DNA of 20,031 bases from a virus (taxonomy: Duplodnaviria > Heunggongvirae > Uroviricota > Caudoviricetes), in the IMG/VR virus record IMGVR_UViG_2541047753_000005, one strand, 5' to 3'. Below are positions 1 to 19,020 of the stretch, piece by piece; within the stretch, counting starts at the first letter, position 1; every line of letters begins with the position of its first letter. Made by a program: the position numbers and the translations under genes. The notes below the pieces were generated by a model. It made no database searches. It had not been told where the DNA came from and worked only from the letters and a program-made list of their open reading frames with translations.

Positions 1-1260
1 ATGCCAAAACTCACAGATATGCAGATCCGCGCATGGATAAAGGCGGGAGACAGATTTGATGGCAAGGCAGACGGCAACGGCCTTTATATTTGCTACCCAA
101 AAAACTACACAGTCCCGTTCTGGCGATTCCGCTATAAGCTCGCAGGAAAGCAGCGGGCTATGGTTATAGGCTCTTACTCCGAACTGTCACTATCAAAAGC
201 CAGAGAAACAGCAAAAGAGCTGTCAGCCAGAGTTGCTCTTGGCTATGACGTAGCAGCAGAGAAACAGGAACGAAAAGCTGAAGCACTGGCAAAAATGGAG
301 GCTGAGAAAAACGCCATGCGCGTTTCAGATCTGGCCGCCGAATACTTCGAGCGCCAGATACTTCCAAGATGGAAACATCCCGATATCCTTCGCCGGAGAA
401 TTGATAAGGATATTAACCCCTGCATTGGGCATATGAAGGTGGAGGACGTTAAGCCACGCCACATTGACGACATGTTGAAAGGTATCGTTGACCGAGGAGC
501 ACCAACGATAGCAACAGATGTATTACGCTGGACACGCCGTATCTTTGACTATGGGATAAAACGCCACGCTCTGGAGATAAACCCTTGTTCAGCGTTTGAA
601 GTATCTGATGCTGGTGGTAAAGAGGTTTCCCGCGACCGTTGGCTAACTCGCGATGAGCTTATCAGGCTATTCGAGGCTATGCGCACCGCAAAAGGATTCA
701 GCCGCCAGAACGAACTGACATTTAAGCTATTGCTGGCACTATGCGTTCGTAAGATGGAGTTATGCGCCGCACGATGGGAAGAGTTTGATTTAGATGGTGC
801 GGTATGGCATTTGCCGGAAGAACGCAGCAAAAACGGAGACCCTATTGATATACCTCTACCTTCCCCAGCCGTTGAATGGTTGAGAGAGCTACACACCTTT
901 TCATGTAATAGCGCATGGGTGCTTCCAGCCAGGAAGATGCAAAACAGAATGATCCCACATATTCAGGAAAGCACTTTGCCCGTAGCACTGGCTAAGGTTC
1001 GCGCCGAAATACCGGATGTGCCTAATTTCACGATTCACGACTTCCGACGCACCGCACGTACTCATTTAGCAGCGTTGGGTGTTGATCCTGTCGTGGCGGA
1101 ACGATGCCTCAATCATCGTATTAAGGGCGTAGAGGGGATTTATAACCGCCATCAGTATTTTGATGAGCGTAAAGCAGCACTGGCACAGTGGGCTGATCTG
1201 CTGGTGGCACTGGAAAGCGGAAAAGACCACAACGTAACGCCTCTCAGAAGGGCGAACTAA
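1..1260 (+). CDS. int: P4-family tyrosine integrase
   Basis: 419-aa ORF beginning exactly at window nt 1. C-terminal HDFRRT ... GIYNRHQY (His-x-x-Arg box and catalytic Tyr) and N-terminal LTD / DGNGLY / WRFRY segments are typical of P4-type integrases. The attachment site (normally a tRNA 3' end just upstream) is outside the window. Confidence 0.9.
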   Translation: MPKLTDMQIRAWIKAGDRFDGKADGNGLYICYPKNYTVPFWRFRYKLAGKQRAMVIGSYSELSLSKARETAKELSARVALGYDVAAEKQERKAEALAKMEAEKNAMRVSDLAAEYFERQILPRWKHPDILRRRIDKDINPCIGHMKVEDVKPRHIDDMLKGIVDRGAPTIATDVLRWTRRIFDYGIKRHALEINPCSAFEVSDAGGKEVSRDRWLTRDELIRLFEAMRTAKGFSRQNELTFKLLLALCVRKMELCAARWEEFDLDGAVWHLPEERSKNGDPIDIPLPSPAVEWLRELHTFSCNSAWVLPARKMQNRMIPHIQESTLPVALAKVRAEIPDVPNFTIHDFRRTARTHLAALGVDPVVAERCLNHRIKGVEGIYNRHQYFDERKAALAQWADLLVALESGKDHNVTPLRRAN

Positions 1261-1355
1261 CTGAATAGATTGAGCCTAGCTCGACGGGGCGAAAAGCGGG
1301 AAGCCTTACCGCCTGGCTCAATCACAAAATAAGGCGCAGCGTAAAAGGTGACGCA

Positions 1356-2313: not shown

Positions 2314-2517
2314 ATGAACACCGACACGATTCCTACAAAAGGCTATATCAGACGCTTTCGCCTGGCTGAATTGCTGGGCGTTAGTGTATCCACCATCGAC
2401 CGTAAAGTAAGAAACGGTTCACTACCACGTCCGGTAAAGCTGGGAGAAAAAATAACTGCGTTTGATGCGGTTGAGATTCACAACTGGCTGGCAGAACGCC
2501 GCGGGAAGGTGGCCTGA
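2314..2517 (+). CDS. alpA: AlpA/Vis-family helix-turn-helix prophage regulator (excisionase-like)
   Basis: 67-aa ORF; HTH-like segment RLAELLGVSVSTIDRKVRNGSLPRPVKLG with C-terminal W/acidic tail typical of AlpA-family proteins. The int-X-alpA order matches CP4-57-like islands. Confidence 0.8.
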   Translation: MNTDTIPTKGYIRRFRLAELLGVSVSTIDRKVRNGSLPRPVKLGEKITAFDAVEIHNWLAERRGKVA

Positions 2518-2960: not shown

Positions 2961-3794
2961 ATGAACATCGAAAAAAGCAGATTAATTTCTGAGGCCGCCC
3001 CTCATCTGAACGCCTCTCTGGGCACAATTAACGGTAATGAATTTGCCGCAATTGTCCCAGTTATTCCTGGTCACATCGGTGGGCGTGAAACCAATATTGT
3101 TAGCGCAAAAGCGTTACACAAAGCGTTGGGCGTGGGAAAAGACTTCTCTACATGGATCACTGATCGCATCTCTGAATATGACTTCACCATTGGGCACGAT
3201 TACTCAGTCCATAAAACAATTTCCCCAAATTTGGGGAAAAGCCCGAATGGCGCGGCTTACAGCAAGATTAAGCAGTCTGGCAGACCCGGCAAAGACTATC
3301 TGTTAAGTGTCGGAATGGCGAAAGAACTGGCAATGATCGAACGCAATGATCAGGGTCGCGCTATCCGTCGTTATTTCATCCAGTGCGAGGAAGAATTACA
3401 GCGTAGCGTGCCTGAAATCGCCGCCCGCTATCGTCGCCAGCTAAAAGCCCGTATCAGTGCCGCAAACAACTTTAAGCCAATGTGCGATGCGCTGAATATG
3501 GCCCGTGCCGAGCAGGGGAAAACGACGCAGCAACACCACTACACAAACGAGAGCAATATGATTTCTCGTATCGTTCTTGGAGGGCTAACTGCTAAGCAGT
3601 GGGCGCGGATAAATGGCTATTCTGGCGAACCTCGCGACCATATGAACGCAGAACAGCTTGAGCACCTCTCATATCTCGAAAGCACCAATATCACGTTAAT
3701 TGATATGGGCATGGAATATGAGCAGCGCAAAGGAGAACTCACCCGCCTGTCGCAACGCTGGCTCGCCAAGCGTCTGGAGGCGGTCCATGTTTAA
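2961..3794 (+). CDS. phage antirepressor-like protein (AntA-like N-terminal domain plus KilAC-like C-terminal domain)
   Basis: 277-aa ORF with GGAGA Shine-Dalgarno. N-terminal segment SAKALHKALGVGKDFSTWITDRISEYDF resembles AntA/Rha-type antirepressor domains; KDYLLSVGMAKELAMIERNDQGRAIRRYFIQCEEEL resembles KilAC domains. Assignment from memory. Confidence 0.65.
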   Translation: MNIEKSRLISEAAPHLNASLGTINGNEFAAIVPVIPGHIGGRETNIVSAKALHKALGVGKDFSTWITDRISEYDFTIGHDYSVHKTISPNLGKSPNGAAYSKIKQSGRPGKDYLLSVGMAKELAMIERNDQGRAIRRYFIQCEEELQRSVPEIAARYRRQLKARISAANNFKPMCDALNMARAEQGKTTQQHHYTNESNMISRIVLGGLTAKQWARINGYSGEPRDHMNAEQLEHLSYLESTNITLIDMGMEYEQRKGELTRLSQRWLAKRLEAVHV

Positions 3795-3969
3795 GCCGAC
3801 AGGAACACCACAACCTCAAAAACGCTACAAAGATGCCCACGGAGCACTCGTTACTGTCGAAAGCGTGTCTCACAACCGAGTGACGTTTTATCGCGACGGG
3901 TATCAATCGCCATGCGTACAACCGCTGGCGCGCTTCATGAAGGAGTTCGCGGAGGTTAACAAATGCTAA
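3787..3969 (+). CDS. small hypothetical protein (60 aa)
   Basis: ATG at 3787 is preceded by GGAGG at about 6 nt and overlaps the antirepressor stop (ATGTTTAA); its own stop overlaps the next ATG (ATGCTAA). Confidence 0.55.
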   Translation: MFKPTGTPQPQKRYKDAHGALVTVESVSHNRVTFYRDGYQSPCVQPLARFMKEFAEVNKC

Positions 3970-5030
3970 CCGTCCAGAAGAAGATATTTTCACTGGCTGG
4001 TATGTCGCCAAAATCCAGCAATATAACAGCAAAGTCTGGCATTAATACAGCAGATACAAGCAAAGTTTATCATTTTCTGGTGGTAGGAGCGGATGCCTTA
4101 ACTATGTCAGAAATTACGGTCGATAGTGTTAGCGTTGAGAAGGTCGGCGGCTGCGCCAGAGAATTTCTGGTCGTAGATGGCTTTCTCTGCTCGCGTAGTG
4201 ACTCCACAAAAACCTTCGTCCACACGCGCGACGTTAACGAAATGAGCGCGATGTATTGTGCATCTGGTGCTTCCAATAGTGAGTTTTCGGAGTCCATAAA
4301 AAAGAGCTTGCCGTTATGCGGCAACACGGTTTATGGTTATAAGGCACCTCATAAAACGGGTGCCGGGATTGGCGTCCTGGTAAATCGAATGGCGACATAT
4401 GACGCGCCGAGCGTCTTTTTTTATGTCGTAGGTCTGACTCACCCATTTTTTGGGCGTTGGTGTATAATCCAGCGCCTTTGTCAATCAATGGTGGCTCAGG
4501 CAGGGGCTTCTTCGGAAGCGCCGGTATCCATTCGAGCCGGTTACGCCAACCCTGTCTGGGCTACCACCAGCGAAATTGGCGTTTCCGGTGGTAGCGTTAC
4601 ATGCTATCGAATGGAGGCTGCCACATGCTGGCTACTACCCCTACCCAAAAACCGCAATTTATCTGGATTATCGCCGCAGTTCGCCGCGATTGCCCGACAA
4701 TTACCGCCAAAATTCATCATATTGCTGCCGAGTCTGAACGCGATGCTCGCCGTTCTCTGGTGCGCGATCACGTCTGCTTTTTTGCTGGTCGTATCCGCAT
4801 GGAGGTGGCACATGATTAAAACCTACGATGTGCATATGGATCCCCTCGAACGCACAAGCCAGATCATCACACTGACAGAAGTGATTAACGACATTCTGGT
4901 GAGCAACTCTCCCTCACGAGACGAAAGACTGAAGGCGTTACTCGCGATATTGGATCTCGCCGTTCGTGACGTTCATTTCCTGCTGGAAGGTGGCGAAATG
5001 CCAGGAAAAACGGGGGCAACCAATGAATAA
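3963..5030 (+). CDS. hypothetical protein; extent uncertain (may be a shorter 5' gene plus untranslated leader plus a separate 72-aa gene at 4813..5030)
   Basis: ATG at 3963 has GGAGG about 7 nt upstream and is coupled to the preceding gene, so a real gene starts here. A 355-codon open frame is very unlikely by chance at this base composition. However the central part is compositionally odd, contains an extended -10 (TGTATAAT, 4461-4468) and stable hairpins, and the in-frame ATG at 4813 has its own strong GGAGGTGG Shine-Dalgarno. Confidence 0.35.
4461..4468 (+). promoter_or_regulatory. candidate extended -10 promoter element (TGTATAAT) ahead of the small-gene/primase operon
   Basis: Perfect TGnTATAAT at 4461-4468 with no convincing -35; preceded by a short GC hairpin plus T7 run (4401-4422). 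Position is analogous to the early promoter driving the primase operon in P4-type elements. Confidence 0.35.
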
Positions 5031-6642: not shown

Positions 6643-7006
6643 AAATGCAGAAATGGCGCTTAGCTCCGCAATCGGAGAGCAGGTGGCAAAGATTGCTGGC
6701 GCTGTGTGGATTCATAACCTTCATTCTACTAGTGAAGAGAAAATGGCAATTCAGACGCCAGAGGGACGCACCATTACTACATCTCTGAAGCCGTCAGATG
6801 TTTGTGATCTGATTTGCGCATTCATGTACCCAGCAATGAGGACTGTCCACGGCGATAAGTGGAAACTTGCGACAACCGCTGAATTTGATATGTGGCTAAA
6901 CAATGATGGCATGCTGACTGATTACGGAATAACCAAGTGGCAGATGCTGGTTAGCCATATCGCAAACGCTATAGACCACGTGGGGTACGGTGATGCGAAA
7001 CATTGA
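6635..7006 (+). CDS. hypothetical protein (123 aa)
   Basis: GGGAGG 5 nt upstream of ATG; 3' end overlaps the primase start. Confidence 0.65.
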   Translation: MRENAEMALSSAIGEQVAKIAGAVWIHNLHSTSEEKMAIQTPEGRTITTSLKPSDVCDLICAFMYPAMRTVHGDKWKLATTAEFDMWLNNDGMLTDYGITKWQMLVSHIANAIDHVGYGDAKH

Positions 7007-9749
7007 TCTTATCCGTCAGGTTATCAGTGCGTCTGAAAACAACTGGCCTCATGTGCTGGGCTGCCTGAACATAAATGTCCCTGACTCTCCGCGCCGTCAT
7101 GCTCCCTGCCCTGCATGTGGGGGCAAAGATCGATTCCGGTTCGATGACAACGGGCGCGGTAGCTTCATCTGTAATCAGTGCGGCGCTGGTGATGGGCTGG
7201 ATTTAATTAAACGCGTAAATAACTGCGACACAACAGAGGCGGCGCTTCTTGCCGCTGATGTTCTGGGTATTGATTACCGGACAACGGAAACACCAGAAGC
7301 CACCAGCCAGAAACGGGAACAACTGGAAACCGAGCGCCAGCGACGCGAACAGGAGCGCCTGAAAAGGGCAGAGAAGGACGAACAACAAAGACGGGATACG
7401 TTTTCCCGTCAGTTTGATGACATGCGCAGAAAGGCTGTAAACGGCAAATCTGATTATCTGGTTGCGAAAGGGGTAGGTGATTTTACATTCCCCGTGTTGC
7501 CCGATGGATCTCTGTTGCTGGCGCTGGTGGATAAATCCGGCGCAGTAACAGCAGCACAGACTATTACCTCACATGGTGAAAAAAGACTCCTGATAGGTTC
7601 AGCAAAGCGGGGGGCATATCACGCCATAAACGCACCAGAAACAACACAGAGCATCTTAATCGCAGAAGGGCTGGCAACGGCATTATCTGCCCATTTAATG
7701 CGTCCAGAGGCGCTGACAGTGGCGGCGATTGATGCCGGGAACCTGTTATATGTCGCCCAGGTACTGCGGGATAAATTTCCTTCAGCACAAATCATCATTG
7801 CTGCGGATAACGACCACAGCGAAGGAAGACAAAACACGGGGAGAATAGCAGCAGAAAAAGCAGCTTTATCTGTTTCTGGATGGGTGGCATTACCCCCGAC
7901 AGATCACAAAGCAGACTGGAATGATTACCACCAAAAACACGGCATTAAATGCGCCACAGAAGCGTTCAATAAGTCAATGTACCAACCACAGGGTAATGGC
8001 GTGAAACAGGAGCCACAAACCATTGAGGGAAGCGATTTTAAGGTTATGGATACCGACCCACTGAAACCAAGAATAGAAAGCCGCGAGGATGGCATTTATT
8101 GGGTATCTCCGAGAGCTGACAGCCAGAGTGGAGAAATCATCAATAACGAAAGCTGGTTATGTTCTCCGTTAAGCGTTATCGGTACTGGCAGAGACGATAA
8201 AGACCAGTATCTCATTCTTCGCTGGCTGTCGTTTGGTTCTGAAACGCCGACAACCGCTGCCATTCCACTGGCTGATATTGGTGAACGTGAAGGATGGCGC
8301 ACACTTAAAGCTGGTGGGGTAAATGTCACGACCAAAAACAGCCTCAGAGCAATACTGGCAGACTGGCTACAACGCAGTGGCTCTCGTGAATTGTGGCGTG
8401 TTGCTCATGCCACTGGCTGGCAATGCGGAGCGTACATCATGCCTGATGGGGAAATCATCGGAACACCTGAAAATCCTGTGCTGTTCAGCGGGAGAAGCTC
8501 AGCCGCAGCCGGATATACCGTCTCAGGGAGCGCGAAAAGCTGGCGTGATAACGTGGCGCGTCTGGCCTTTGGTAACTATTCAATGATGACCGGGATCGGC
8601 GCAGCACTGGCAGCGCCATTGATTGGGCTGGTGGGCGCTGACGGGTTCGGCATTCATTTCTATGAGCAGTCGAGCGCAGGTAAGACCACCACGGCAAACG
8701 TGGCGAGCAGCTTATACGGCAACCCTGATTTACTGCGGCTGACGTGGTACGGAACCGCGCTGGGGCTGGCAAATGAAGCCGCCGCCCACAATGACGGACT
8801 AATGCCGCTTGATGAAGTTGGTCAGGGCGCTGATCCTGTCAGTATTTCACAGTCTGCCTATGCGTTATTTAACGGTGTAGGGAAACTGCAAGGCGCTAAA
8901 GATGGTGGAAACCGGGATCTAAAACGCTGGCGTACAGTGGCAATCAGCACCGGAGAAATGGATTTAGAAACATTTATCGCTACTTCCGGGCGAAAAACCA
9001 AAGCCGGGCAACTGGTGCGACTGCTGAATATTCCGTTGAGTAAAGCAGTACGCTTTCACGATTACCAGAACGGAAAACAGCACGCAGACGCACTGAAAGA
9101 CGCTTACCAGCATCACCACGGCGCAGCCGGGCGTGAGTGGATTAAATGGCTGGCAGACCACCAGCAACAGGCAATTAAAACTGTTCGTGACTGCGAAAGC
9201 AGATGGAGAAGTCTGATCCCATCCGATTATGGTGAGCAGGTTCACCGTGTAGCCGCGCGATTTGCCATTCTGGAGGCCGCATTGCTGTTAGGCGAGGTTG
9301 TAACAGGCTGGGATGCTCAGACATGCCGTGATGCGATACAGCACAGCTATAACGCATGGTTGCGCGAGTTCGGCACAGGTAACAAAGAACATCAGCAGAT
9401 TATTGAACAAACGGAGGCATTTCTTAATGCCTATGGGCTTAGCCGTTTTGCACCATTTCCATACAGCCCGGCAGATTTGCCCATCAAAGATTTAGCCGGA
9501 TACCGTCAGCGTGGAGAACATGACGAAAGCCCAATGATTTTCTACACATTCCCGGCCACATTTGAAAAGGAGATCGCATGTGGTTTCAACGCAAAACAGT
9601 TTGCTGAAGTGTTGAAAAAAGCCGGGATGCTAACCCCACCAAACAGCGGTCGTGGATACCAAAGAAAATCACCACGTATTCAGGGACGACAAATAAACGT
9701 TTATGTACTCAATTACCAGCCAGGAGATTACAACTCATCTGAAGAATGA
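6993..9749 (+). CDS. replicative primase-helicase (P4 alpha-like: zinc ribbon, Toprim primase, P-loop NTPase domain)
   Basis: 918 aa from ATG 6993 (ORF-track start 6990 is a GTG). N-terminal zinc ribbon CPACGG...CNQCG; Toprim-like acidic motifs (LIAEG, AADNDH); Walker A-like EQSSAGKTTT and Walker B-like LMPLDEVG. An iteron array follows 26 bp after the stop. Confidence 0.85.
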   Translation: MRNIDLIRQVISASENNWPHVLGCLNINVPDSPRRHAPCPACGGKDRFRFDDNGRGSFICNQCGAGDGLDLIKRVNNCDTTEAALLAADVLGIDYRTTETPEATSQKREQLETERQRREQERLKRAEKDEQQRRDTFSRQFDDMRRKAVNGKSDYLVAKGVGDFTFPVLPDGSLLLALVDKSGAVTAAQTITSHGEKRLLIGSAKRGAYHAINAPETTQSILIAEGLATALSAHLMRPEALTVAAIDAGNLLYVAQVLRDKFPSAQIIIAADNDHSEGRQNTGRIAAEKAALSVSGWVALPPTDHKADWNDYHQKHGIKCATEAFNKSMYQPQGNGVKQEPQTIEGSDFKVMDTDPLKPRIESREDGIYWVSPRADSQSGEIINNESWLCSPLSVIGTGRDDKDQYLILRWLSFGSETPTTAAIPLADIGEREGWRTLKAGGVNVTTKNSLRAILADWLQRSGSRELWRVAHATGWQCGAYIMPDGEIIGTPENPVLFSGRSSAAAGYTVSGSAKSWRDNVARLAFGNYSMMTGIGAALAAPLIGLVGADGFGIHFYEQSSAGKTTTANVASSLYGNPDLLRLTWYGTALGLANEAAAHNDGLMPLDEVGQGADPVSISQSAYALFNGVGKLQGAKDGGNRDLKRWRTVAISTGEMDLETFIATSGRKTKAGQLVRLLNIPLSKAVRFHDYQNGKQHADALKDAYQHHHGAAGREWIKWLADHQQQAIKTVRDCESRWRSLIPSDYGEQVHRVAARFAILEAALLLGEVVTGWDAQTCRDAIQHSYNAWLREFGTGNKEHQQIIEQTEAFLNAYGLSRFAPFPYSPADLPIKDLAGYRQRGEHDESPMIFYTFPATFEKEIACGFNAKQFAEVLKKAGMLTPPNSGRGYQRKSPRIQGRQINVYVLNYQPGDYNSSEE

Positions 9750-9774: not shown

Positions 9775-9894
9775 GTTGGTTCAGTTGGTTCAGTTGGTTC
9801 AGTTGGTTCAATTTGTAAAGAGTATTGTTTTATAAGAATTTTATTCTTTTTATTGAACCAACACTGAACCAACAGCACGGTATTTTGAACCAAC
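9775..9894. repeat. iteron array / origin-like element, left copy
   Basis: Four tandem GTTGGTTCA units (9775-9810), an AT-rich spacer, then three inverted TGAACCAAC units at 9854, 9865 and 9886. Confidence 0.7.
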
Positions 9895-10213
9895 ACAATG
9901 TGACTGAATTGATGCGCACAACACCTGGCTGGCATCAGAGAGTGTTTTACGAGACTTTCGTAAAATCCTGTGTACAAGGGCGTGACGTTTTTGAAAGTGA
10001 GCACTACGAAATTTTCGTAGTTCAGAAAACAGCCCCTGAGAAGTTGTTATACCTGTTCAGCAAACCATCCGCATAGCTGATCGCGAATCAAATTACCAAT
10101 GGAGCCAGAAGCAAGGGCAGAACTGAAAAGCGCCTGCCGTGAAGAGTAATGCGACACCATAAATATAGTTTTTAGAGTCCATAAAAAACCTGTCAAAACC
10201 TGACACACAGAAC

Positions 10214-10247
10214 GATGCCACCAGCTACTGAGCGGTGGCATTTTTTT
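10214..10247 (+). terminator. intrinsic terminator
   Basis: GATGCCACC / GGTGGCAT stem with an 11-nt loop followed by a T7 run. Confidence 0.6.
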
Positions 10248-10342
10248 GTGCTATCTGTTTCATATTTTGCAATTACGATGATGAATATTGCGATTTGTGA
10301 AACTATAATAACTGTTGTTTTATACAGTTCTAAGGGGGCGTT

Positions 10343-10504
10343 ATGGCTATTTCAGTAAAGCCGGTATTGATAAGTGAGAAGCAAATGGAAGCGATAAAGA
10401 AAATTCAGGAAGAGCAGCGTAAAAAATCAGGAATTGGAGTAGCGCCAACTCTGCATGAAATTGCACGAGGGTTAATAGATAAGGCGCTGGCAGGCTGTAT
10501 GTGA
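10343..10504 (+). CDS. small protein (53 aa), possibly ribbon-helix-helix-like DNA-binding protein
   Basis: Not in the ORF track (under 60 aa). ATG at 10343 preceded by AAGGGGG about 6 nt upstream and a TATAAT at 10304-10309. Predicted short beta-strand (ISVKPVLIS) followed by two helices; fold assignment is a guess. Confidence 0.5.
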   Translation: MAISVKPVLISEKQMEAIKKIQEEQRKKSGIGVAPTLHEIARGLIDKALAGCM

Positions 10505-10520
10505 AAATGGATGGCATCGC

Positions 10521-10982
10521 ATGGAACTAAAATTTATTGATAACCCTGTGCGATTACAGGCCTTTCTCAACGAGCCTGGCAATACCGAAAATATTGTTGA
10601 GCCGGGGCACACGTACTACATCAAGCCTGATGCGGTATATCTCGGTATCTACGAAGGATTGGTGCTGGCTGGCGTTCATGAAGTGCGTAACTTCTGGCAT
10701 AGCATTGTTGAATGCCATGCGGTGTACGACCCCGGATTCCGTGGTGAATATGCACTGCAAGGGCATCGATTATTCTGCAAATGGCTTCTCGAAAACTCAC
10801 CATTCCTTAACAGCATTACCATGGTTCCTGACACAACGAAATACGGACGGGCAATTATCCGTTTGCTTGGCGCTACCCGTGTTGGTCACCTTGATGATGC
10901 TTATATCAGATGTGGTAAACCCGTCGGCGTAACGCTTTATCAGTTAACTCGGCAACAATATAAGGAATTCAGCGAATGTTAA
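10521..10982 (+). CDS. hypothetical protein at the position of gene 14 in P22-type ejection-gene blocks
   Basis: 153-aa ORF; stop overlaps the start of the next gene. Assignment by position only. Confidence 0.6.
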   Translation: MELKFIDNPVRLQAFLNEPGNTENIVEPGHTYYIKPDAVYLGIYEGLVLAGVHEVRNFWHSIVECHAVYDPGFRGEYALQGHRLFCKWLLENSPFLNSITMVPDTTKYGRAIIRLLGATRVGHLDDAYIRCGKPVGVTLYQLTRQQYKEFSEC

Positions 10983-11653
10983 TTACCCATATAGCTCATA
11001 AACATCTCAATCGTGCCGTATACGAAAAAGGCGGTGATGGTGGTGCCTCTAAAGCTCAGGCGAAGGCCCAGCAGCAGGCAATTGATTTGCAGCGCGAGCA
11101 GTGGAATACGGTGATGAATAATCTCAAGCCGTATGCAGAAGTCGGATTGCCTGCTTTACAACAACTACAAGGACTGATGACTCTGGAAGGGCAGAATAAA
11201 GCCGCGAATGATTTCTTTGGTTCTGGTTTATATAAAACACAGGCAGATCAGGCCCGTTATCAGAACCTTGTCTCAGCAGAAGCTACCGGGGGGCTTGGCT
11301 CAACAGCTACCAGTAACCAGTTATCTTCCATTGCGCCCATGCTTTATAACAATTGGCTTAGTGGGCAAATGCAAAATTATGGAAACCTGCTAAATGTCGG
11401 GATGAATGCGGCATCAGGGCAGGCAACAGCAGGGCAAAACTACGCCAATAATACCGGACAACTCTTGCAGGGGCTTGGCGCTATTCGTGCAGGTCAGGCG
11501 CAGCAGCCATCCAGTCTTGCGCGTGGTATTGGTGGGGCGGCATCAGGCGCTTTAGCGGGTGCGCAACTTGGTTCCGTTGTTCCGGGTATAGGTAATGTCG
11601 CCGGGGCTATTGGTGGTGGGCTTATTGGTCTTGTTGGGGGGCTTGGATTCTAA
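10976..11653 (+). CDS. putative podovirus ejection (DNA-transfer) protein, P22 gp7-like
   Basis: 225 aa (P22 gp7 is about 229 aa as I recall). Gln/Ala/Gly-rich low-complexity protein with a Gly-zipper hydrophobic C-terminus (GALAGAQLGSVVPGIGNVAGAIGGGLIGLVGGLGF). Start overlaps the upstream stop. Homology inferred from size, order and composition, not from a search. Confidence 0.5.
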   Translation: MLITHIAHKHLNRAVYEKGGDGGASKAQAKAQQQAIDLQREQWNTVMNNLKPYAEVGLPALQQLQGLMTLEGQNKAANDFFGSGLYKTQADQARYQNLVSAEATGGLGSTATSNQLSSIAPMLYNNWLSGQMQNYGNLLNVGMNAASGQATAGQNYANNTGQLLQGLGAIRAGQAQQPSSLARGIGGAASGALAGAQLGSVVPGIGNVAGAIGGGLIGLVGGLGF

Positions 11654-13074
11654 TGGCGACATGGCAACTTGGCGGGCTGCCTAGCATGGTACCGCAAAAT
11701 GATAATGCTCCTCGTTCTTCCGTTCCTCAGCCTGTGCAGTTTCAGCAGCAGCCAAACGTAGGTTTAATGGCGCTACAGGGGCTAAGAGGCGTTGCTGAGA
11801 TTAATCAGCAGGCACGTCAACAACAGCGTAAAGCAGAGTTTCAGAAAGCATATGCCGGGGCTTTTGAGTCTGGAGACAGAAACAAAATGCGCAGTCTTAT
11901 TTCTGAGTATCCAGAAGAATTTGAAAGCGTTCAGAAAGGGATGGGCTTTATTGATGACGACCAGAGAAATTCTATTGGTCATCTTGCGACTAGTGCTCAA
12001 ATCGCATCTTCGCTCGGAACTGGGGCATTTGGAAAATTCATAGCAGATAACGAAGATGAAATGCGTCGCTTGGGAATTTCTCCTGAGTCTGTTGCCGAAA
12101 TGCATGTTAATGATCCACAGGAATTCCAGCGGCTTGCTGGTAGTATGGCACTGTTTTCTCTCGGTCATGAGAAGTACTTCGATATCAAAGATCGAATGGA
12201 AGGTCGGGATATTGAGCGTGGCAAGTTGGCAGAGACAATCCGCAGCAATCAGGCTGGAGAGGCGCTTCAGGCGAGAGGGCAGGATATTAGCCGAGCAAAT
12301 GCGTTAACGTCAGCATATGCACCAACAGCCGCAATGCAGAATTACAATCAGTACGCGCAAATGTTAAAGGCGGATCCAGAGGGGGCAGCGGCATTTGCGG
12401 CAGCGGCTGGAATTAATACAAACGCCAAAAAATTAATGAGTGTTAGGGAAAACGATGATGGCACTGTCACAAAATACTACACAGACGGAAGTGAAGAGCA
12501 GGGAAAACTAAACCAGCCAATATCTGGAGATGGGTTTCGTCCAATAGCTTTGCCAACAGCCCAAAAGATCATGGAAAAGTCGCCAGAAGGGGCTAAAAAA
12601 GCTGCTGGATTTGCATACAGAGTTAGGGATGCTCTTGATTCAATGGATACACTGAAAGGCCAGCTTAGCCCACAGCGAGTGGCGATCATTAATAATGCTT
12701 TGGGTAATGGGACGCTGGCTAACTTAACGCTCAGCCCAACAGAGCAGCAATACGTTGTTAATGCTAATGACGCAATAATGGCAATACTCCGTCAGGAAAC
12801 AGGGGCAGCTATCGTACCTGCTGAAATGTCAAAATATTATCAAATGTATTTCCCTCAGCCTGGCGACTCCACAAAAACCATTGATACCAAGCGCCGGAAG
12901 ATGGAAAACCAGTTCAATTCGCTGAAAGCTGCTTCTGGTCGAGCTTATGATGCTTTGCGTGTTATTTCAGCAGTTGACAGAGGAACTTCTTCTTCGTCGC
13001 AGACATTGCCGCAATCTGAGCAGGTATCACAGCCAGCAGCCAGCAGTAATTTTTCTTCACTATGGGGTGATTAA
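11653..13074 (+). CDS. putative podovirus ejection (DNA-transfer) protein, P22 gp20-like
   Basis: 473 aa (P22 gp20 is about 471 aa as I recall); TAATG stop/start overlap with the preceding gene; Gln-rich N-terminus. Confidence 0.5.
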   Translation: MATWQLGGLPSMVPQNDNAPRSSVPQPVQFQQQPNVGLMALQGLRGVAEINQQARQQQRKAEFQKAYAGAFESGDRNKMRSLISEYPEEFESVQKGMGFIDDDQRNSIGHLATSAQIASSLGTGAFGKFIADNEDEMRRLGISPESVAEMHVNDPQEFQRLAGSMALFSLGHEKYFDIKDRMEGRDIERGKLAETIRSNQAGEALQARGQDISRANALTSAYAPTAAMQNYNQYAQMLKADPEGAAAFAAAAGINTNAKKLMSVRENDDGTVTKYYTDGSEEQGKLNQPISGDGFRPIALPTAQKIMEKSPEGAKKAAGFAYRVRDALDSMDTLKGQLSPQRVAIINNALGNGTLANLTLSPTEQQYVVNANDAIMAILRQETGAAIVPAEMSKYYQMYFPQPGDSTKTIDTKRRKMENQFNSLKAASGRAYDALRVISAVDRGTSSSSQTLPQSEQVSQPAASSNFSSLWGD

Positions 13075-15179
13075 TGGCTAAAGCATGGAAAGATGTTATC
13101 GCCTCTCCACAGTATCAGGCGTTAGCACCAGAACAAAAAGTGCAGGCTCAGGAGCAATACTTCAATGAAGTCGTGGCCCCGCAAGCCGGAGAAAGTGTAG
13201 AGCAGGCTAAGCAGGCTTTTTATGCTGCCTATCCACTACCATCTACGAATGAAATAGACCGCTCCCAATCAGCAACTCAAAATATTCAACATACATCATC
13301 TGATAATTCTCTTGCGTCAGGGTATGCAAAGTTAGCTACTCAGCAAAGAGAGGGGCTTGAGCGTTCAGCAGAACAGGGAGCCAGTCTTGGGACTGCGATG
13401 CGCGATGCTATAACAGGCGAAAGCCGAATGACTCCAGAGATGGAGAGACTGCAAAATGTCGCCTCTGCCCCAGAATTGAACTCACTAAGCATGGATGCCC
13501 TGAAGGCTGGATGGTCTCAACTTTTCGGCTCTGACGCGTCTCAGGAAAAGATTCTTCAGGGCATGGGGGCGACATTAAGGCAGGATGAGAAGGGGAATAC
13601 TATCGTTTCTCTGCCATCAGGTGATTATGCCCTGAACAAGCCGGGTTTATCACCGCAAGACCTGACTTCGTTTCTGGCTAATGCGCTGGCGTTTACACCA
13701 GCGGGCAGGGCTGGAACGGTGCTTGGTGCCATAGGAAAATCAGCAGCTACAGATTTAGCACTACAGGGAGCCACCAGCAAGGCTGGTGGAGAAGATATTG
13801 ATCCGTTACAAACGGTAATTTCTGCTGGCATTGGTGGTATTGGTAAGGGGCTGGAAAATACAGCGAGTGCGGTTTCGAGGGCTGTTCGTGGTGATATGTC
13901 GCCTGAAGCAAAGGCTGCTGTCGACTTTGCATCGGAAAGAAATCTGCCGTTAATGACCAGTGACATGCTGAAAGATAAAACCTTTATGCAGAGTCAGGCT
14001 CAGACATTAGGCAAAAGAGTTCCTTTTTTTGGAACCGGTAAGAATCGGCTGAATCAACAACAAGCACGAGAAAATTTAGTCAGAACATTTAGCGATGGTC
14101 TGGGTGGCATTTCTGATAAACAGCTTTATGAATCTGCGACTAAAGGGCAACAAAAATTCATTGAGGCAGCAGGAAAGCGATATAACCGCATAATTGACGC
14201 TATGGGGGATACCCCTGTCGATCTCTCAAACACGGTAAAAACTATCGACAATCAGATTGCCGTGTTAAGCCGCCCTGGCAAATCTCAGGATAGAGCCGCG
14301 GTAAAAGTCTTGCAGCAATTTAAAGACGATATCACCAGCGGACCAAATGACCTGCGTCTGGCGAGGGAAAACAGAACCGATCTTCGAAAGCGATTTATAG
14401 CGTCATCTGACACTGTTGATAAAGATACGCTCCAGAAAGCCAGCGATATTATCTACAAGGCATATACGGCGGATATGAAAAAAGCCGTAGCCAAAAATCT
14501 TGGAGCAGACGAAGCCATTAATATGGCAAGGGTTGATCGCTCATGGTCTAAATTCAATGACATGATGGGAAGAACGCGCGTTCAAAAGGCAATAGCCAGC
14601 GGCAAGGCCACGCCTGAGGATGTAACAAAACTCGTTTTTAGCCAAAGCCCATCAGAACGTTCTCAGCTTTACAGGCTTCTGGATGACAATGGTAGGCAAA
14701 ACGCACGAGCAGCTATAGTTCAGAATGCTGTAGATAAGGCGACTGATCCGTCTGGAAATATCAGTGTTGAGAAGTTTATTAATGCGTTACACCGGAACAG
14801 GAAGCAATCAGCAACTTTCTTTAAAGGCGTACATGGAAAGGAACTGGACGGCGTTATTAAATACCTCAACGATACAAGACACGCGGCAAAAGCGAACGTT
14901 CAAAACTTAAATGGTCAGCAGCTTTATGGATTGTTAGTTGGTGGTGGCATCATAAACGCAGCAGTATTGGCGGGGATGCTAAAAACGGCTGCGTTTGTTG
15001 TTCCTGCTGCTGGTGCCGTAGGCGGAGCAGCGAAGGCATACGAAAGCCCTGTTATACGAAATGCCTTGTTACGTCTGGCAAATACGCCAAAAGGTAGCAC
15101 AGCATATGACAGAGCGATCAGTACGGTCACACAATCGCTCACCAGAGTCGCACAGGCATCACAAAAAGAAGCTCAATAA
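13074..15179 (+). CDS. putative podovirus ejection (DNA-transfer) protein, P22 gp16-like
   Basis: 701 aa; TAATG overlap with the preceding gene; low-complexity Ala/Gln/Gly-rich protein with a hydrophobic Gly/Ala-rich segment near the C-terminus (LYGLLVGGGIINAAVLAGMLKTAAFVVPAAGAVGGAAKA). Third and largest gene of the block, as in P22. Confidence 0.5.
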   Translation: MAKAWKDVIASPQYQALAPEQKVQAQEQYFNEVVAPQAGESVEQAKQAFYAAYPLPSTNEIDRSQSATQNIQHTSSDNSLASGYAKLATQQREGLERSAEQGASLGTAMRDAITGESRMTPEMERLQNVASAPELNSLSMDALKAGWSQLFGSDASQEKILQGMGATLRQDEKGNTIVSLPSGDYALNKPGLSPQDLTSFLANALAFTPAGRAGTVLGAIGKSAATDLALQGATSKAGGEDIDPLQTVISAGIGGIGKGLENTASAVSRAVRGDMSPEAKAAVDFASERNLPLMTSDMLKDKTFMQSQAQTLGKRVPFFGTGKNRLNQQQARENLVRTFSDGLGGISDKQLYESATKGQQKFIEAAGKRYNRIIDAMGDTPVDLSNTVKTIDNQIAVLSRPGKSQDRAAVKVLQQFKDDITSGPNDLRLARENRTDLRKRFIASSDTVDKDTLQKASDIIYKAYTADMKKAVAKNLGADEAINMARVDRSWSKFNDMMGRTRVQKAIASGKATPEDVTKLVFSQSPSERSQLYRLLDDNGRQNARAAIVQNAVDKATDPSGNISVEKFINALHRNRKQSATFFKGVHGKELDGVIKYLNDTRHAAKANVQNLNGQQLYGLLVGGGIINAAVLAGMLKTAAFVVPAAGAVGGAAKAYESPVIRNALLRLANTPKGSTAYDRAISTVTQSLTRVAQASQKEAQ

Positions 15180-15197
15180 CTGGTTAGCCACGGATGG

Positions 15198-15674
15198 CTA
15201 ATTTTTGTTCTTTGCTCTCATCCACAGGTAAAGAAGGGCAAGAACAAGACAAAAAACAGAGAATAGATGACCTACCTCATATGGTGCGCCCAAAAAATTA
15301 GCTATTGATACGGGCAAAAAAGCTGAAGCGATCAAAATTGAAAGGCAAAAAATAAGCCCAGTAATATAGTTTATTAAATTCTTAAATGAGAAATGTTTTG
15401 CTTGATTTACGGTCTTAGCGAATGATCGCTTAACGACGGATAAAAGCAAATAGATGGCGACAGTTGCTAATGCCCCTTTCCACCAGTCTGGATATAGTTT
15501 TGCGACAATCAGACCAAGGAAAACCATGATGACAGCCTGAGCATTCACACCAACCCTCCCTTTAGCGTTGTTTAGAATGGCAATCATCATATATCCAAGA
15601 CATGGCATTTGGTACATAGCTTGGGTCGGGATTTCAAATCCGATCCCCGTTGATGGGGCCGTTACAGTGCGCAC
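15198..15674 (-). CDS. polytopic inner-membrane protein, candidate superinfection-exclusion protein (SieA-like by position)
   Basis: Convergent with the ejection operon and AT-rich. About four hydrophobic helices. The ORF-track start at 15674 is a GTG; an in-frame GTG preceded by GGGAGGG (protein then begins VNAQAVIMVF) is a more plausible start, so the 5' end is uncertain. P22 sieA occupies this position and orientation after gene 16. Confidence 0.5.
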   Translation of the reverse strand: MRTVTAPSTGIGFEIPTQAMYQMPCLGYMMIAILNNAKGRVGVNAQAVIMVFLGLIVAKLYPDWWKGALATVAIYLLLSVVKRSFAKTVNQAKHFSFKNLINYITGLIFCLSILIASAFLPVSIANFLGAPYEVGHLFSVFCLVLALLYLWMRAKNKN

Positions 15675-16581: not shown

Positions 16582-16767
16582 TCATTGGTTGCCAGCCCGC
16601 GAATCAAGTTTGTTCTGGATCCAAGCTTCAACCTCCTCAAGCGACCATCTAGCTGATCTACCAATTTTAACTGGCTGTGGAAACGTGCCCGTCTTAACCC
16701 ATGAGTAGATTGCCGTTTTCTTGAAGCCCGTTCTGAGCATGACTTCGCTTAATTTGATAAGGCGCAT
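16582..16767 (-). CDS. AlpA/Vis-family helix-turn-helix regulator, second copy
   Basis: 61-aa ORF on the minus strand; LSEVMLRTGFKKTAIYSWVKTGTFPQPVKIGRSARWSLEEVEAWI is a typical AlpA-family sequence; GAGGAG Shine-Dalgarno 5 nt upstream of the ATG. Confidence 0.75.
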   Translation of the reverse strand: MRLIKLSEVMLRTGFKKTAIYSWVKTGTFPQPVKIGRSARWSLEEVEAWIQNKLDSRAGNQ

Positions 16768-17285: not shown

Positions 17286-17406
17286 GTTGGTTCACGGCCT
17301 CTTTTTGTTGGTTCAAAAATGGGGTGTGTTGGTTCACATTTTGCGAATAATCCTTTTAAAAACAATACTCTTTACAAATTGAACCAACTGAACCAACTGA
17401 ACCAAC
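17286..17406. repeat. iteron array / origin-like element, right copy (reverse complement of the left copy)
   Basis: Three GTTGGTTCA units spaced 21 bp apart (17286, 17307, 17328), AT-rich spacer, three tandem TGAACCAAC units (17380-17406). 17359-17406 is an exact 48-bp inverted repeat of 9784-9831. Confidence 0.7.
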
Positions 17407-17442: not shown

Positions 17443-17730
17443 ATGATAAGGGACAGGAAAGCTGAAGAGCTGGAGTTAAAAGGGCTATGCCGGAGAGCTG
17501 CCACACGATGGGCAGAAGTCATGACGCTGGCAGATGGCGATAAAGAACGTGAACATGCAGCAAACAGACGCTCTGAATGTATCCGTAGGGCGGCACGCCC
17601 ACCAGCAACTACAGACAGATTCGGAGACTTAAGACAGGCAGTTAAGCGAACGCATTCAGCTCTTGGTATGGATGAGGAAGCGAGAGGGTACTTCAGGCGT
17701 TATCGCGATAAAGATTGCCAGCTACGATAA
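17443..17730 (+). CDS. hypothetical protein (95 aa, Arg-rich)
   Basis: GAGAGG Shine-Dalgarno 5 nt upstream of ATG; begins just right of the iteron array; no recognised motif. Confidence 0.45.
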   Translation: MIRDRKAEELELKGLCRRAATRWAEVMTLADGDKEREHAANRRSECIRRAARPPATTDRFGDLRQAVKRTHSALGMDEEARGYFRRYRDKDCQLR

Positions 17731-17899: not shown

Positions 17900-18664
17900 A
17901 TGACTACAACGGTATATGATCGTGTTAACGCCTTAGTAGCGACCGACTCTAGGTGGTCTGTTGATCTTAGCCCACATGGCTACGATGGTCATATCCTGTA
18001 TATTGACGACACCGGCTTCGGTAAGCTAGCTCCACGAAATGATTTTGTTATGCTTTTAGCCGGTGATGGTCTTTTGATTCAGTTATGGAAGCATTGGTGG
18101 CGAGGAGACCTATCTCAACAAGAACCACCAGTTGTTTTACCTACTGGTCAATCGGTAAATTTACATATTGTGAAAAAATCAACTAATGAAGTGATTTTTG
18201 ATAAAGGTCAAAAATTAGTTGTAAAAAATAACGAAACGGAAGAACTGTTCGCTGTCTTTACAGGCTCAGGATGCGGTGCTGCTGCGCAAAACTGGATGTA
18301 TAGCCATTGCGCAAGATCAGCAATTGAAGAATCTAAAAAGCTTGACCCATACACTGGCGGCACTGTACGTTTTTTAGACTTCAGGACTAACGCATCATTA
18401 GTAGAAGACTCTGTTTCAACCATTAGCGAAGTAAACGAAGCTCTATTGCAGAGGGGGCTGATTATGGATACCAAAAACCCACATTCACCACACGTTTCTA
18501 TCAGTGCACAAGAAGTTGCTGAAGTTCGTCAAATGCTGGTTAGTGGTTCAATTACCCCATGTGCACCAGTAGGCCAAAGAACCCAAGATTGGGATGACAA
18601 CTCCAAATTGCGTTTAGCAAATGCTATTCAGCGTATTCGTGAAGAAGAAGCACAAATGCGATAA
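17900..18664 (+). CDS. putative Ntn-hydrolase, HslV/proteasome-beta-like threonine peptidase with C-terminal extension
   Basis: 254 aa, AT-rich. N-terminus MTTTVYDRVNALVATDSRWS parallels HslV [20 protein letters not shown] (Thr directly after Met, conserved Asp); LFAVFTGSGCGAAAQNW parallels the HslV IAIGSGGPYAQAAARAL motif. No Shine-Dalgarno before the ATG. No HslU-like ATPase gene in the window. From remembered HslV sequence only. Confidence 0.5.
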   Translation: MTTTVYDRVNALVATDSRWSVDLSPHGYDGHILYIDDTGFGKLAPRNDFVMLLAGDGLLIQLWKHWWRGDLSQQEPPVVLPTGQSVNLHIVKKSTNEVIFDKGQKLVVKNNETEELFAVFTGSGCGAAAQNWMYSHCARSAIEESKKLDPYTGGTVRFLDFRTNASLVEDSVSTISEVNEALLQRGLIMDTKNPHSPHVSISAQEVAEVRQMLVSGSITPCAPVGQRTQDWDDNSKLRLANAIQRIREEEAQMR

Positions 18665-18712: not shown

Positions 18713-19020
18713 AGTCCGTTTCCCCATTCTATGTAAATACACTTCCTAAAAATAGCGATTAACTTACCTCTCACAATCAATTTCACGAGCAATACGCGTG
18801 CGCAGTACAACAAGCCTGAACAGGGTTACACACCTCGATCGTGAGCGATGTAGACAATGGCTTTTGACCAAAGCACCAGAAAAAACCGTGTACATAAGGG
18901 TGTACATAATCAAAAAAATCATTAGAAAGAAATCAGCCACAATGCGGCATTGAAGCCAATACTCTACAAACAGATCCAAGAATAACTCGTAACGCCAATT
19001 CTTCCTTTTCAGCCTTCACA

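Follow-up and report, generated by a model that had tools for sequence, protein, structure and literature searches.

The 20,031-nt stretch analysed here (the window) is the IMG/VR record IMGVR_UViG_2541047753_000005, filed as a virus of the class Caudoviricetes. It contains an operon of five genes, a 53-amino-acid (aa) leader open reading frame (ORF) followed by homologues of the virion genes 14, 7, 20 and 16 of phage P22, within an integrated phage-inducible chromosomal island (PICI). The island resembles EcCIMP1, the PICI of Escherichia coli MP1 that excises on induction of the P22-like phage vB_EcoP_Kapi1 (PMC11773190; Pick, Stadel & Raivio, ISME J 2025), and we class it as a satellite of P22-like podophages. 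Elements of this type have been described before; what sets this further member of the EcCIMP1-like family apart is another integration module and another ejection-protein type.

A P22-type ejection operon in a chromosomal island

The window was 99.9% identical to chromosomal segments in several E. coli strains. In the complete genome of strain FDAARGOS_1262 (99.9% identical), the island sits between the core genes yicC and dinD, with rph-yicC on its left (pyrE beyond) and dinD-yicG-ligB on its right (gmk beyond), and 24-nt direct att repeats (22/24 identical) enclose about 19.0 kb. It has the traits of a PICI, namely an integrase, an AlpA regulator, a primase with an adjacent origin, a size within 10-20 kb, att repeats and the absence of structural and lysis genes. 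A preliminary description, made from the letters alone, had noted that head, portal, terminase and tail genes were missing, and Pfam and PHROG profile searches agreed: no capsid, terminase, portal or tail gene was found within the window, nor any scaffold, coat, gp4, gp10, gp26 or tailspike gene. That description had also allowed for a P22-like prophage lying just outside. Core chromosomal genes on both flanks rule out a complete or defective P22-like prophage continuing past the window.

The ORF map reproduced the operon exactly as first described, with ORFs of 53, 153, 225, 473 and 701 aa (Table 1). The gp14 and gp7 genes overlap by 7 nt, and 1-nt overlaps within ATGA join gp7 to gp20 (at 11653) and gp20 to gp16 (at 13074), an arrangement of translational coupling. 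The proposed correspondence with the 14-7-20-16 ejection block of P22-type phages was borne out by Pfam, PHROG and blastp matches, and profile searches together with blastp and tblastn recovered the similarity to P22 and Sf6 ejection proteins that had been anticipated. P22 gp14, gp7 and gp20 match the same Pfam models as the island proteins (P22 gp14 is itself PF11039); for P22 gp16 there was no matching model in the Pfam set used.

The degree of similarity differed between the four proteins. By blastp, the gp14 homologue was 98.7% identical to that of EcCIMP1, 83% to Kapi1_055 and 23% to P22 gp14, and the gp7 homologue was 56% identical to P22 gp7. In the gp20 homologue, the N-terminal Inj_translocase domain is conserved and the C-terminal half is specific to the type; the protein matched P22 gp20 over the N-terminal 223 aa only (38%), and its full-length homologues (46-56%) lie in P22-like prophages of Citrobacter, Arsenophonus and Proteus. 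The gp16 homologue, here called type A, has a hydrophobic segment at about residues 616-650. It aligned with P22 gp16 over 482 aa (30%, E=2e-51) and, in tblastn searches, full-length with gp16 of Sf6, L and ST64T (about 32%); the closest phage gp16 was that of the Lederbergviruses N7/HZ41 (67%), with all other phages at 39% or less. A sequence search of the PDB returned no solved structure for the gp7, gp20 or gp16 homologues. By these alignments, membership of the P22 gp14, gp7, gp20 and gp16 families is unambiguous.

Mature P22 gp7 begins with KGGKG, its propeptide being removed by the host protease OpdA (PMC8402733). The gp7 homologue of the island starts with a 17-aa leader followed by KGGDGG, which aligned with the P22 cleavage junction (...E/KGGxGG, the slash marking the junction). 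The junction at the N-terminal processing site singled out for checking is thus conserved, and the 17-aa leader is a putative propeptide.

Regulatory signals and the leader ORF

A terminator-like hairpin parts the replication module from the ejection operon, and a second hairpin lies between the operon and the convergent gene beyond it. The upstream hairpin, the -10 hexamer and the CTGT-N8-ACAG dyad that follows it were kept between the E. coli and Leclercia satellites, whereas the flanking DNA has diverged. As to the promoter that the preliminary description gave the operon, its perfect TATAAT stood, but the -35 is poor and a consensus promoter scan did not call the site at 10304 for that reason. 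A Q/qut-type late promoter was judged unlikely by eye, because the start codon lies only 34 nt past the -10 with no terminator between.

The leader ORF had been proposed as a regulator. It is conserved, with homologues in Citrobacter, Serratia and Klebsiella, and the AlphaFold2 model (pLDDT 87.5), with an extended N-terminus and helices at residues 12-29 and 37-52, confidently predicts a ribbon-helix-helix-like topology. Because the best Foldseek match was not significant (E=4) and neither Pfam nor phmmer against the PDB returned anything, a regulatory role for the 53-aa protein is inferred only.

Conservation, distribution and variants of the cassette

A search with the gp7 homologue in one genome per species gave 22 loci. 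Twenty of them were ordinary P22-like prophages, each with the tail-needle gene 26 directly upstream of gene 14; the remaining two, in Escherichia sp. and Leclercia adecarboxylata, had the satellite arrangement, in which the primase and origin precede the operon. Between the E. coli and Leclercia satellites, dN/dS was 0.03 for the leader, 0.07 for each of gp14, gp7 and gp20, and 0.08 for gp16, at a synonymous divergence that is saturated (dS >1). Judged by this codon comparison, strong purifying selection maintains the ejection cassette in the satellite lineage.

The same arrangement was found in satellites of Escherichia, Leclercia, Citrobacter-type and Serratia. Citrobacter-type contigs have leader-gp14-gp7-gp20-gp16, and the Serratia satellite has leader-gp20-gp16. 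In Leclercia (L006, 6719-9106) and in Citrobacter-type contigs (L034 and L035, 7822-9741), genes for SSB, ProQ/FinO-like and helix-turn-helix proteins lie between the primase/origin and the ejection operon. Among 5,426 complete E. coli genomes, the primase-ori-leader-gp14-gp7 junction was present in 237 and the gp7-gp20-gp16 junction of the window type in 180; gp20C/gp16 of the window type occurred in 316, about 290 of them with the satellite-type upstream context. Overall, about 6-7% of the complete genomes of E. coli have the cassette.

Composition varies within the family. Many members (for example L027, L028, L029 and those of Serratia) pass from a 57- or 53-aa leader straight to gp20 and gp16 without gp14 or gp7 (Table 1); the gp20+gp16 pair is thus the invariant cargo. 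At least three unrelated gp20/gp16 types sit on otherwise similar satellite backbones: that of the window, L027 and L029; that of EcCIMP1 and Leclercia; and that of L028, whose gp20 and gp16 are 75% and 41% identical to those of Kapi1. In EcCIMP1 and Kapi1, the one verified satellite/helper pair, the types of satellite and helper differ. The operon of the window is also mosaic at the nucleotide level, with a gp14 segment 81-89% identical to Kapi1, Louie and 720R6 and a gp16 segment 68% identical to N7.

Relatives in Klebsiella michiganensis (L032/L033, 10001-12649) encode the leader, a 605-aa protein and a TerS-like 168-aa protein. The 605-aa protein resembles (67-77% identity) a virion transglycosylase/tape-measure-like protein found in Yersinia phage vB_YenM and the Klebsiella phages RothC/Chronis, which suggests that the Klebsiella members may exploit a different helper group. 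Because these relatives hold a virion protein of another phage group and a TerS-like protein in the same place, the slot after the leader is probably the virion-exploitation module of the satellite.

A candidate pac-site mimic shared with terS genes

Two co-oriented copies of a conserved motif lie upstream of the ejection genes, one inside the annotated 'ash' ORF and one in non-coding DNA between the origin and the operon (Table 1). Their core, GAGTCCATAAAAAA, is found at 4290-4303 and 10175-10188; allowing up to two mismatches, the window has three matches against 0.23 expected by chance. Two to three co-oriented copies were found in all Escherichia, Leclercia, Citrobacter-type and Serratia satellites, and none in the Klebsiella variant, where a TerS-like gene is part of the element. 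The 25-mer of the first copy is identical to a segment of terS of phage N7 (L036, 123-147), whose TerS is of the CUS-3 type.

In IMG/VR, 115 of 120 motif occurrences were in frame (…F-x-ESIKKG); N7-type TerS homologues accounted for 94 of these and Ash ORFs for 19. A by-product of homology between the Ash and TerS proteins was ruled out as the source of the motif, since only an 8-aa peptide is common to both. Six divergent TerS homologues were then picked by protein similarity alone. Three of them, from Salmonella, Acinetobacter and Riemerella phages, keep ESIKK, and all three encode it as GAG TCC ATA AAA AA(G/A). Because the exact codons are kept even though gene-wide third-position identity in these ESIKK-keeping terS genes is only 0.34-0.46, the comparison indicates a constraint at the DNA level inside terS. 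The idea that the island's C4 antisense RNA acts on the motif found no support: there was no complementarity, and the duplex energies did not stand out.

The pac site of P22 lies in its terS gene (P22 record). We regard the motif as a candidate mimic of a pac site or TerS-recognition sequence. It is absent from Kapi1 and P22 even with three mismatches allowed; the TerS of Kapi1 has a different N-terminal domain, and the non-coding motif copy of EcCIMP1 has a point change. These differences could explain why Kapi1 transduces EcCIMP1 poorly. The pac-like motif and the relationship of gp16 both point to CUS-3/N7-type phages as better helpers than Kapi1.

Island backbone and the gene slot after gp16

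The remaining features are listed in Table 1. The two origin copies reported earlier were confirmed as iteron arrays, together containing 13 exact copies of TGAACCAAC against 0.16 expected in the window. The arrays are near-identical, inverted, and flank the ejection operon and accessory region on both sides; a doubled array is also seen in EcCIMP1, L027, L029 and the Serratia, Citrobacter-type and Klebsiella relatives. Both arrays may be origins, or the repeats may favour exchange of the cassette. The translation of the 'Ash' ORF, which overlaps a P4/P1-type immunity RNA region, looks odd (our impression is that it is rich in Cys and Trp), and a stretch of this annotated ORF may not encode a real protein. 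Near attR, a 254-aa hypothetical protein (17900-18664) matched an HslV-family peptidase weakly in PHROG (E=3e-13) and nothing in Pfam or PADLOC. PADLOC found no known defence system among the accessory genes.

Table 1. Features of the window, by position, and reduced loci of relatives
Feature	Position	Strand	Evidence or remark
attL repeat	about 60-80 bp left of window start/int; L001 14820-14843		direct repeat
Tyrosine integrase	1..1260	+	Pfam Arm-DNA-bind_3, Phage_int_M, Phage_integrase
int-alpA RNA motif, between integrase and next gene	1269..1335	+	Rfam RF02996, 60.6 bits (gathering score 35.8)
AlpA-family regulator, slot of PICI master regulator	2314..2517	+	Pfam Phage_AlpA
AntA/AntB-type antirepressor	2961..3794	+	Pfam AntA, E=1e-21
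Annotated 'Ash family' ORF (355 aa)	3963..5030	+	Pfam Phage_ASH
Conserved motif copy 1, TGAGTTTTCGGAGTCCATAAAAAAG, inside 'ash' ORF	4280..4304	+	25 nt identical to terS segment of CUS-3/N7-type phages
isrK, inside 'ash' ORF	4344-4421		Rfam 67.1 bits, above gathering score
C4 antisense RNA, inside 'ash' ORF	4484-4571		Rfam 79.5 bits, above gathering score
Primase/replicase (Zn-ribbon, Toprim, DUF927)	6990..9749	+	Pfam; phrog_1139 E=1e-177
Origin-like iteron array 1, four inverted and three direct TGAACCAAC repeats	9775..9894		kept across satellite family
Conserved motif copy 2, ATAGTTTTTAGAGTCCATAAAAAA, non-coding	10165..10188	+	kept in Escherichia, Leclercia, Citrobacter-type and Serratia satellites
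Terminator-like hairpin and T-run	10216..10247	+	
-10 hexamer TATAAT, weak -35, then CTGT-N8-ACAG dyad	10304..10309	+	
Leader ORF, 53 aa	10343..10504	+	specific to satellite family
gp14 homologue (DUF2824), 153 aa	10521..10982	+	PF11039 E=2e-61; phrog_651
gp7 homologue (ejection protein), 225 aa	10976..11653	+	PF25688 P22_gp7 E=2e-72
gp20 homologue (ejection protein), 473 aa	11653..13074	+	PF16928 Inj_translocase E=2e-58; phrog_917 E=1e-111
gp16 homologue (ejection protein), type A, 701 aa	13074..15179	+	phrog_770 'DNA transfer protein' E=3e-160
Hairpin terminator between convergent genes	15182..15203		
129-aa multi-pass membrane protein (ORF extendable to 15674)	15198..15587	-	annotation, hydropathy
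Second AlpA/Xis-like gene, position and orientation as EcCIMP1 alpA_1	16582..16767	-	Pfam Phage_AlpA E=2e-13
Origin-like iteron array 2	17286..17406		found in most satellite family members
PerC-family regulator	17443..17730	+	RefSeq annotation
attR core repeat, CGTGTACATAAGGGTGTACATAAT	18887..18910	+	22/24 identical to attL
Reduced loci (leader, gp20, gp16)	L027 10035-13784; L028 10404-14027; L029 11131-14880; L030 10001-14357		

A convergent membrane-protein gene follows the operon, as the preliminary description had observed by analogy with P22, though it is not a homologue of sieA. The gene occupies the P22 sieA slot and encodes three to four hydrophobic segments by hydropathy; position, orientation and multi-pass character are all that it has in common with SieA. 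Identity with SieA was rejected, with no blastp similarity to P22 SieA, no FxRYPxEAxxFNK motif and no phage homologue, and the 129-aa protein had no Pfam, PHROG, PADLOC or phage tblastn match. In relatives (L002, L006, L027-L030), the slot holds unrelated multi-pass membrane proteins, lipoproteins or signal-peptide proteins, whose genes have only a conserved 5' end (MIAILNNAKGRVGV) in common, and Abi_2 or RnlAB defence genes lie further downstream. The slot after gp16 is a hot-spot where envelope and defence genes vary, and its genes are candidates for superinfection-exclusion functions.

Comparison with EcCIMP1 and other known systems

EcCIMP1 is the closest described element. In E. coli MP1, its alpA is required for the PICI cycle, alpA_1 supports helper excision and its PerC homologue represses LEE1 (PMC11773190). 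Kapi1 transduces it at low frequency (about 5e3 per ml), and its presence leaves Kapi1 titres unchanged after induction; it adds to the superinfection immunity of Kapi1 lysogens while leaving non-lysogens unprotected, and no defence system of a known kind was detected in EcCIMP1 (PMC11773190). The two islands agree in their alpA-to-perC gene order and iteron arrays, and both have the second alpA/xis-like gene and PerC; they encode an identical 53-aa protein, and gp14, gp7 and primase are 98.7%, 99.6% and 99.5% identical. They differ in the integrase and attachment site (tRNA-Thr in EcCIMP1, the yicC/dinD intergenic region here), in gp20, which is alike only over the N-terminal ~190 aa (48%), and in gp16, which in EcCIMP1 is an unrelated 906-aa protein with a lytic transglycosylase domain and here is a 701-aa P22/N7-like protein. 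The gene after gp16 is a co-directional lipoprotein gene in EcCIMP1 and a convergent multi-pass membrane-protein gene here.

Because EcCIMP1 has the same cassette, with gp14 and gp7 99% identical (PMC11773190), finding ejection genes in such an element is less surprising than the preliminary description held. EcCIMP1_017-019 were described as hypothetical, 'DNA transfer/DUF2824-like' genes with a suggested role in packaging (PMC11773190); Pick et al. noted these genes without interpreting them as an ejection cassette. In the literature collection searched, no other paper discusses satellite-borne ejection proteins. New here are the purifying selection on the cassette, its spread over four genera, its frequency in E. 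coli and the members with gp20 and gp16 only.

The operon agrees with the P22 14-7-20-16 block in gene order, coupling, protein families and the convergent membrane-protein gene after gene 16. In P22, however, the block belongs to the late operon, follows the tail-needle gene 26 and is transcribed from P_late, whereas the island operon follows the primase and origin, has its own leader ORF and -10 and is accompanied by no further virion gene.

With EcCICFT073-type and capsid-forming PICIs, the island has in common the int-alpA-primase/ori backbone, its size, helper dependence and a PerC-like gene (PMC11773190). Those elements hold packaging-redirection or capsid genes in their late slot; the family described here holds DNA-ejection proteins there and no TerS, Rpp or capsid gene.

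P4-like satellites resemble the island in the C4/CI-type immunity RNA with isrK inside the 'ash' ORF, the AlpA-like regulator and the large primase. The helper of P4 is a P2-like myophage, whereas that of EcCIMP1 is a P22-like podophage, and no sid, psu or delta homologue was among the Pfam and PHROG matches of the window. SaPIbov5 is a satellite with copies of helper packaging sites (pac and cos). The island is comparable in that it has two co-oriented copies of a motif otherwise conserved at the DNA level in CUS-3/N7-type terS, a putative pac site.

Role of the ejection operon

Published genetics of P22 ejection proteins bears directly on the role of the operon. P22 gp20 residues 1-314 and gp7 residues 21-154 are the regions of scaffold-dependent procapsid incorporation, and the ejection proteins are loaded into procapsids ahead of DNA packaging (PMC8402733). 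The ejection-protein sets of Sf6, L, CUS-3 and HK620 assemble into P22 virions and function; gp16 and gp20 must be cognate, gp7 is interchangeable, and a non-cognate gp16 or gp20 enters P22 particles but leaves the virions non-infectious (PMC10883804). Mutations that escape SieA lie in gp16 and gp20, and SieA does not exclude the HK620 set (PMC10883804).

Tentatively, we consider it the most probable explanation that the satellite loads its own functional ejection proteins into procapsids and particles built by the helper and so brings its own DNA-delivery device; of the readings offered in the preliminary description, this supply of own ejection proteins is favoured over decoy or interference. 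On induction of a P22-like helper, the satellite would excise and replicate and its ejection operon would be switched on. The satellite proteins would be recruited to helper procapsids through their conserved N-terminal regions for scaffold-dependent incorporation, and particles carrying satellite DNA would build the trans-envelope conduit in the next cell with them. Shell, portal, packaging motor and tail would be borrowed from the helper, and only the delivery device would be the satellite's own. The likely benefit would be independence from the helper's ejection-protein type. It may allow entry to cells that exclude the helper type, as through SieA-like exclusion in lysogens, the recipients most useful to the satellite, and the use of many different helpers.

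Several observations argue for this supply of own proteins, besides the kinship with EcCIMP1, the purifying selection, the spread of the cassette and the content of the slot in Klebsiella. Competence for virion assembly is suggested by conservation of the propeptide junction in gp7 and of the N-terminal domain in gp20. The satellites with gp20 and gp16 only match the cognate-pair rule of P22 genetics, at least three unrelated types of this pair occur in satellites, and the type of EcCIMP1 is not that of its helper. The timing of operon expression, entry of the satellite proteins into virions and the selective benefit are inferred. Several points weigh against the reading. Loading precedes DNA, so helper genomes would receive the proteins too and the advantage would not be specific to the satellite. 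Kapi1 titres are unchanged and transduction reaches only ~5e3 per ml, so any effect in this pair must be small unless Kapi1 serves poorly as a helper. The promoter, with its perfect -10 and weak -35, leaves uninduced expression possible. SieA escape is known for one phage set only, and sieA occurs in only 22 of 66 P22-like phages (PMC10883804). As for the SieA-escape residues themselves, gp16 G532 aligned with a conserved G, and the C-terminal region of gp20 could not be aligned, and no inference was drawn.

Interference with the helper is the next explanation to be weighed, and we think it unlikely. Other satellites lower helper infectivity through sabotage of capsid or packaging. Here, satellite gp20 and gp16 would mix with the non-cognate proteins of the helper to give defective conduits and lower helper infectivity, which fits both the difference in type between satellite and verified helper and the non-infectious virions that P22 forms with non-cognate gp16 or gp20 (PMC10883804). 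However, after induction the titres of Kapi1 are no lower with EcCIMP1 present (PMC11773190), poisoning would strike the satellite's own particles equally, and a single subunit would suffice; a cognate pair together with gp14 and a gp7 with an intact propeptide junction would not be needed.

Exclusion in the resident cell appears distinctly unlikely. According to this explanation, the operon is expressed in the lysogen, perhaps with the membrane protein, and disturbs the conduits of incoming P22-like phages. The separate promoter and terminator of the operon would suit such a role, as would the increased immunity of Kapi1 lysogens that carry EcCIMP1, with no known defence system there (PMC11773190) or in the island described here. 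Yet EcCIMP1 gave non-lysogens no protection (PMC11773190), and the strong conservation of virion-incorporation features would be left unexplained. The downstream envelope-protein gene is a more natural candidate than virion proteins made in the cytoplasm, and we consider the gene in the 129-aa slot a better candidate than the ejection proteins for the reported immunity effect of EcCIMP1.

A contribution to packaging or assembly, as suggested by Pick et al., would mean that the proteins help to package satellite DNA or initiate procapsids and do not act in delivery. The slot downstream of the primase is indeed where PICIs keep packaging genes (PMC11773190), but the operon encodes nothing that resembles TerS, Rpp/Ppi or a capsid-size factor, the island has a candidate pac-like motif elsewhere, and the only detectable homologues are virion ejection proteins of the P22 family, gp16 and gp20 aligning full-length with those of phages and prophages. 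This makes such a contribution improbable. We find it quite improbable that the cassette is a recombination reservoir, serving as homology for module exchange with the helper or for hitchhiking of the satellite. The mosaicism of the operon relative to phages and the swapping of gp20/gp16 types among otherwise near-identical satellites would both be expected, but mosaicism is equally expected of any functional module held in common with phages, and a patch of homology needs no strong purifying selection on protein sequence. Last, the earlier suggestion of a prophage remnant between the two origin copies, a decaying fragment without function trapped in the island, retains a very small probability: ejection genes are usually confined to complete P22-like prophages, as in 20 of the 22 species-level loci, but intact and coupled ORFs, dN/dS of 0.03-0.08, and the same position and conserved regulatory region in four genera and hundreds of E. 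coli genomes rule it out.

Implications for satellites of P22-like phages

The satellites described so far exploit their helpers through capsid size, packaging specificity or tails. To our knowledge, none has been reported to provide the proteins by which DNA crosses the envelope of the recipient. A wider interpretation, possible but on balance doubtful, is that the whole family practises 'ejectosome swapping', loading its own cognate gp20/gp16 pair, alone or together with gp14 and gp7, into helper procapsids so that SieA-type exclusion in the recipient fails to recognise the conduit, and being packaged through mimics of the pac site recognised by CUS-3/N7-type TerS. Besides E. coli, the family has members in Leclercia, Citrobacter and Serratia, and others in Klebsiella that carry different virion proteins. 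If such swapping occurs, it would be a third, previously unrecognised layer of piracy, acting at DNA entry rather than at the capsid or the packaging motor, and high-frequency transfer would be expected from phages with CUS-3-type TerS as the true helpers, not from Kapi1; the published model pair, EcCIMP1 and Kapi1, transfers poorly.

DNA entry would then be a further point of contest among satellites, helpers and exclusion systems such as SieA, and this would account for the marked mosaicism of the ejection proteins, whose genes rank with the most mosaic ones in P22-like phages. Commensal and pathogenic E. coli commonly harbour members of the family, which bring with them PerC-like virulence regulators and defence genes; the route by which the islands are transferred therefore matters for gene flow.

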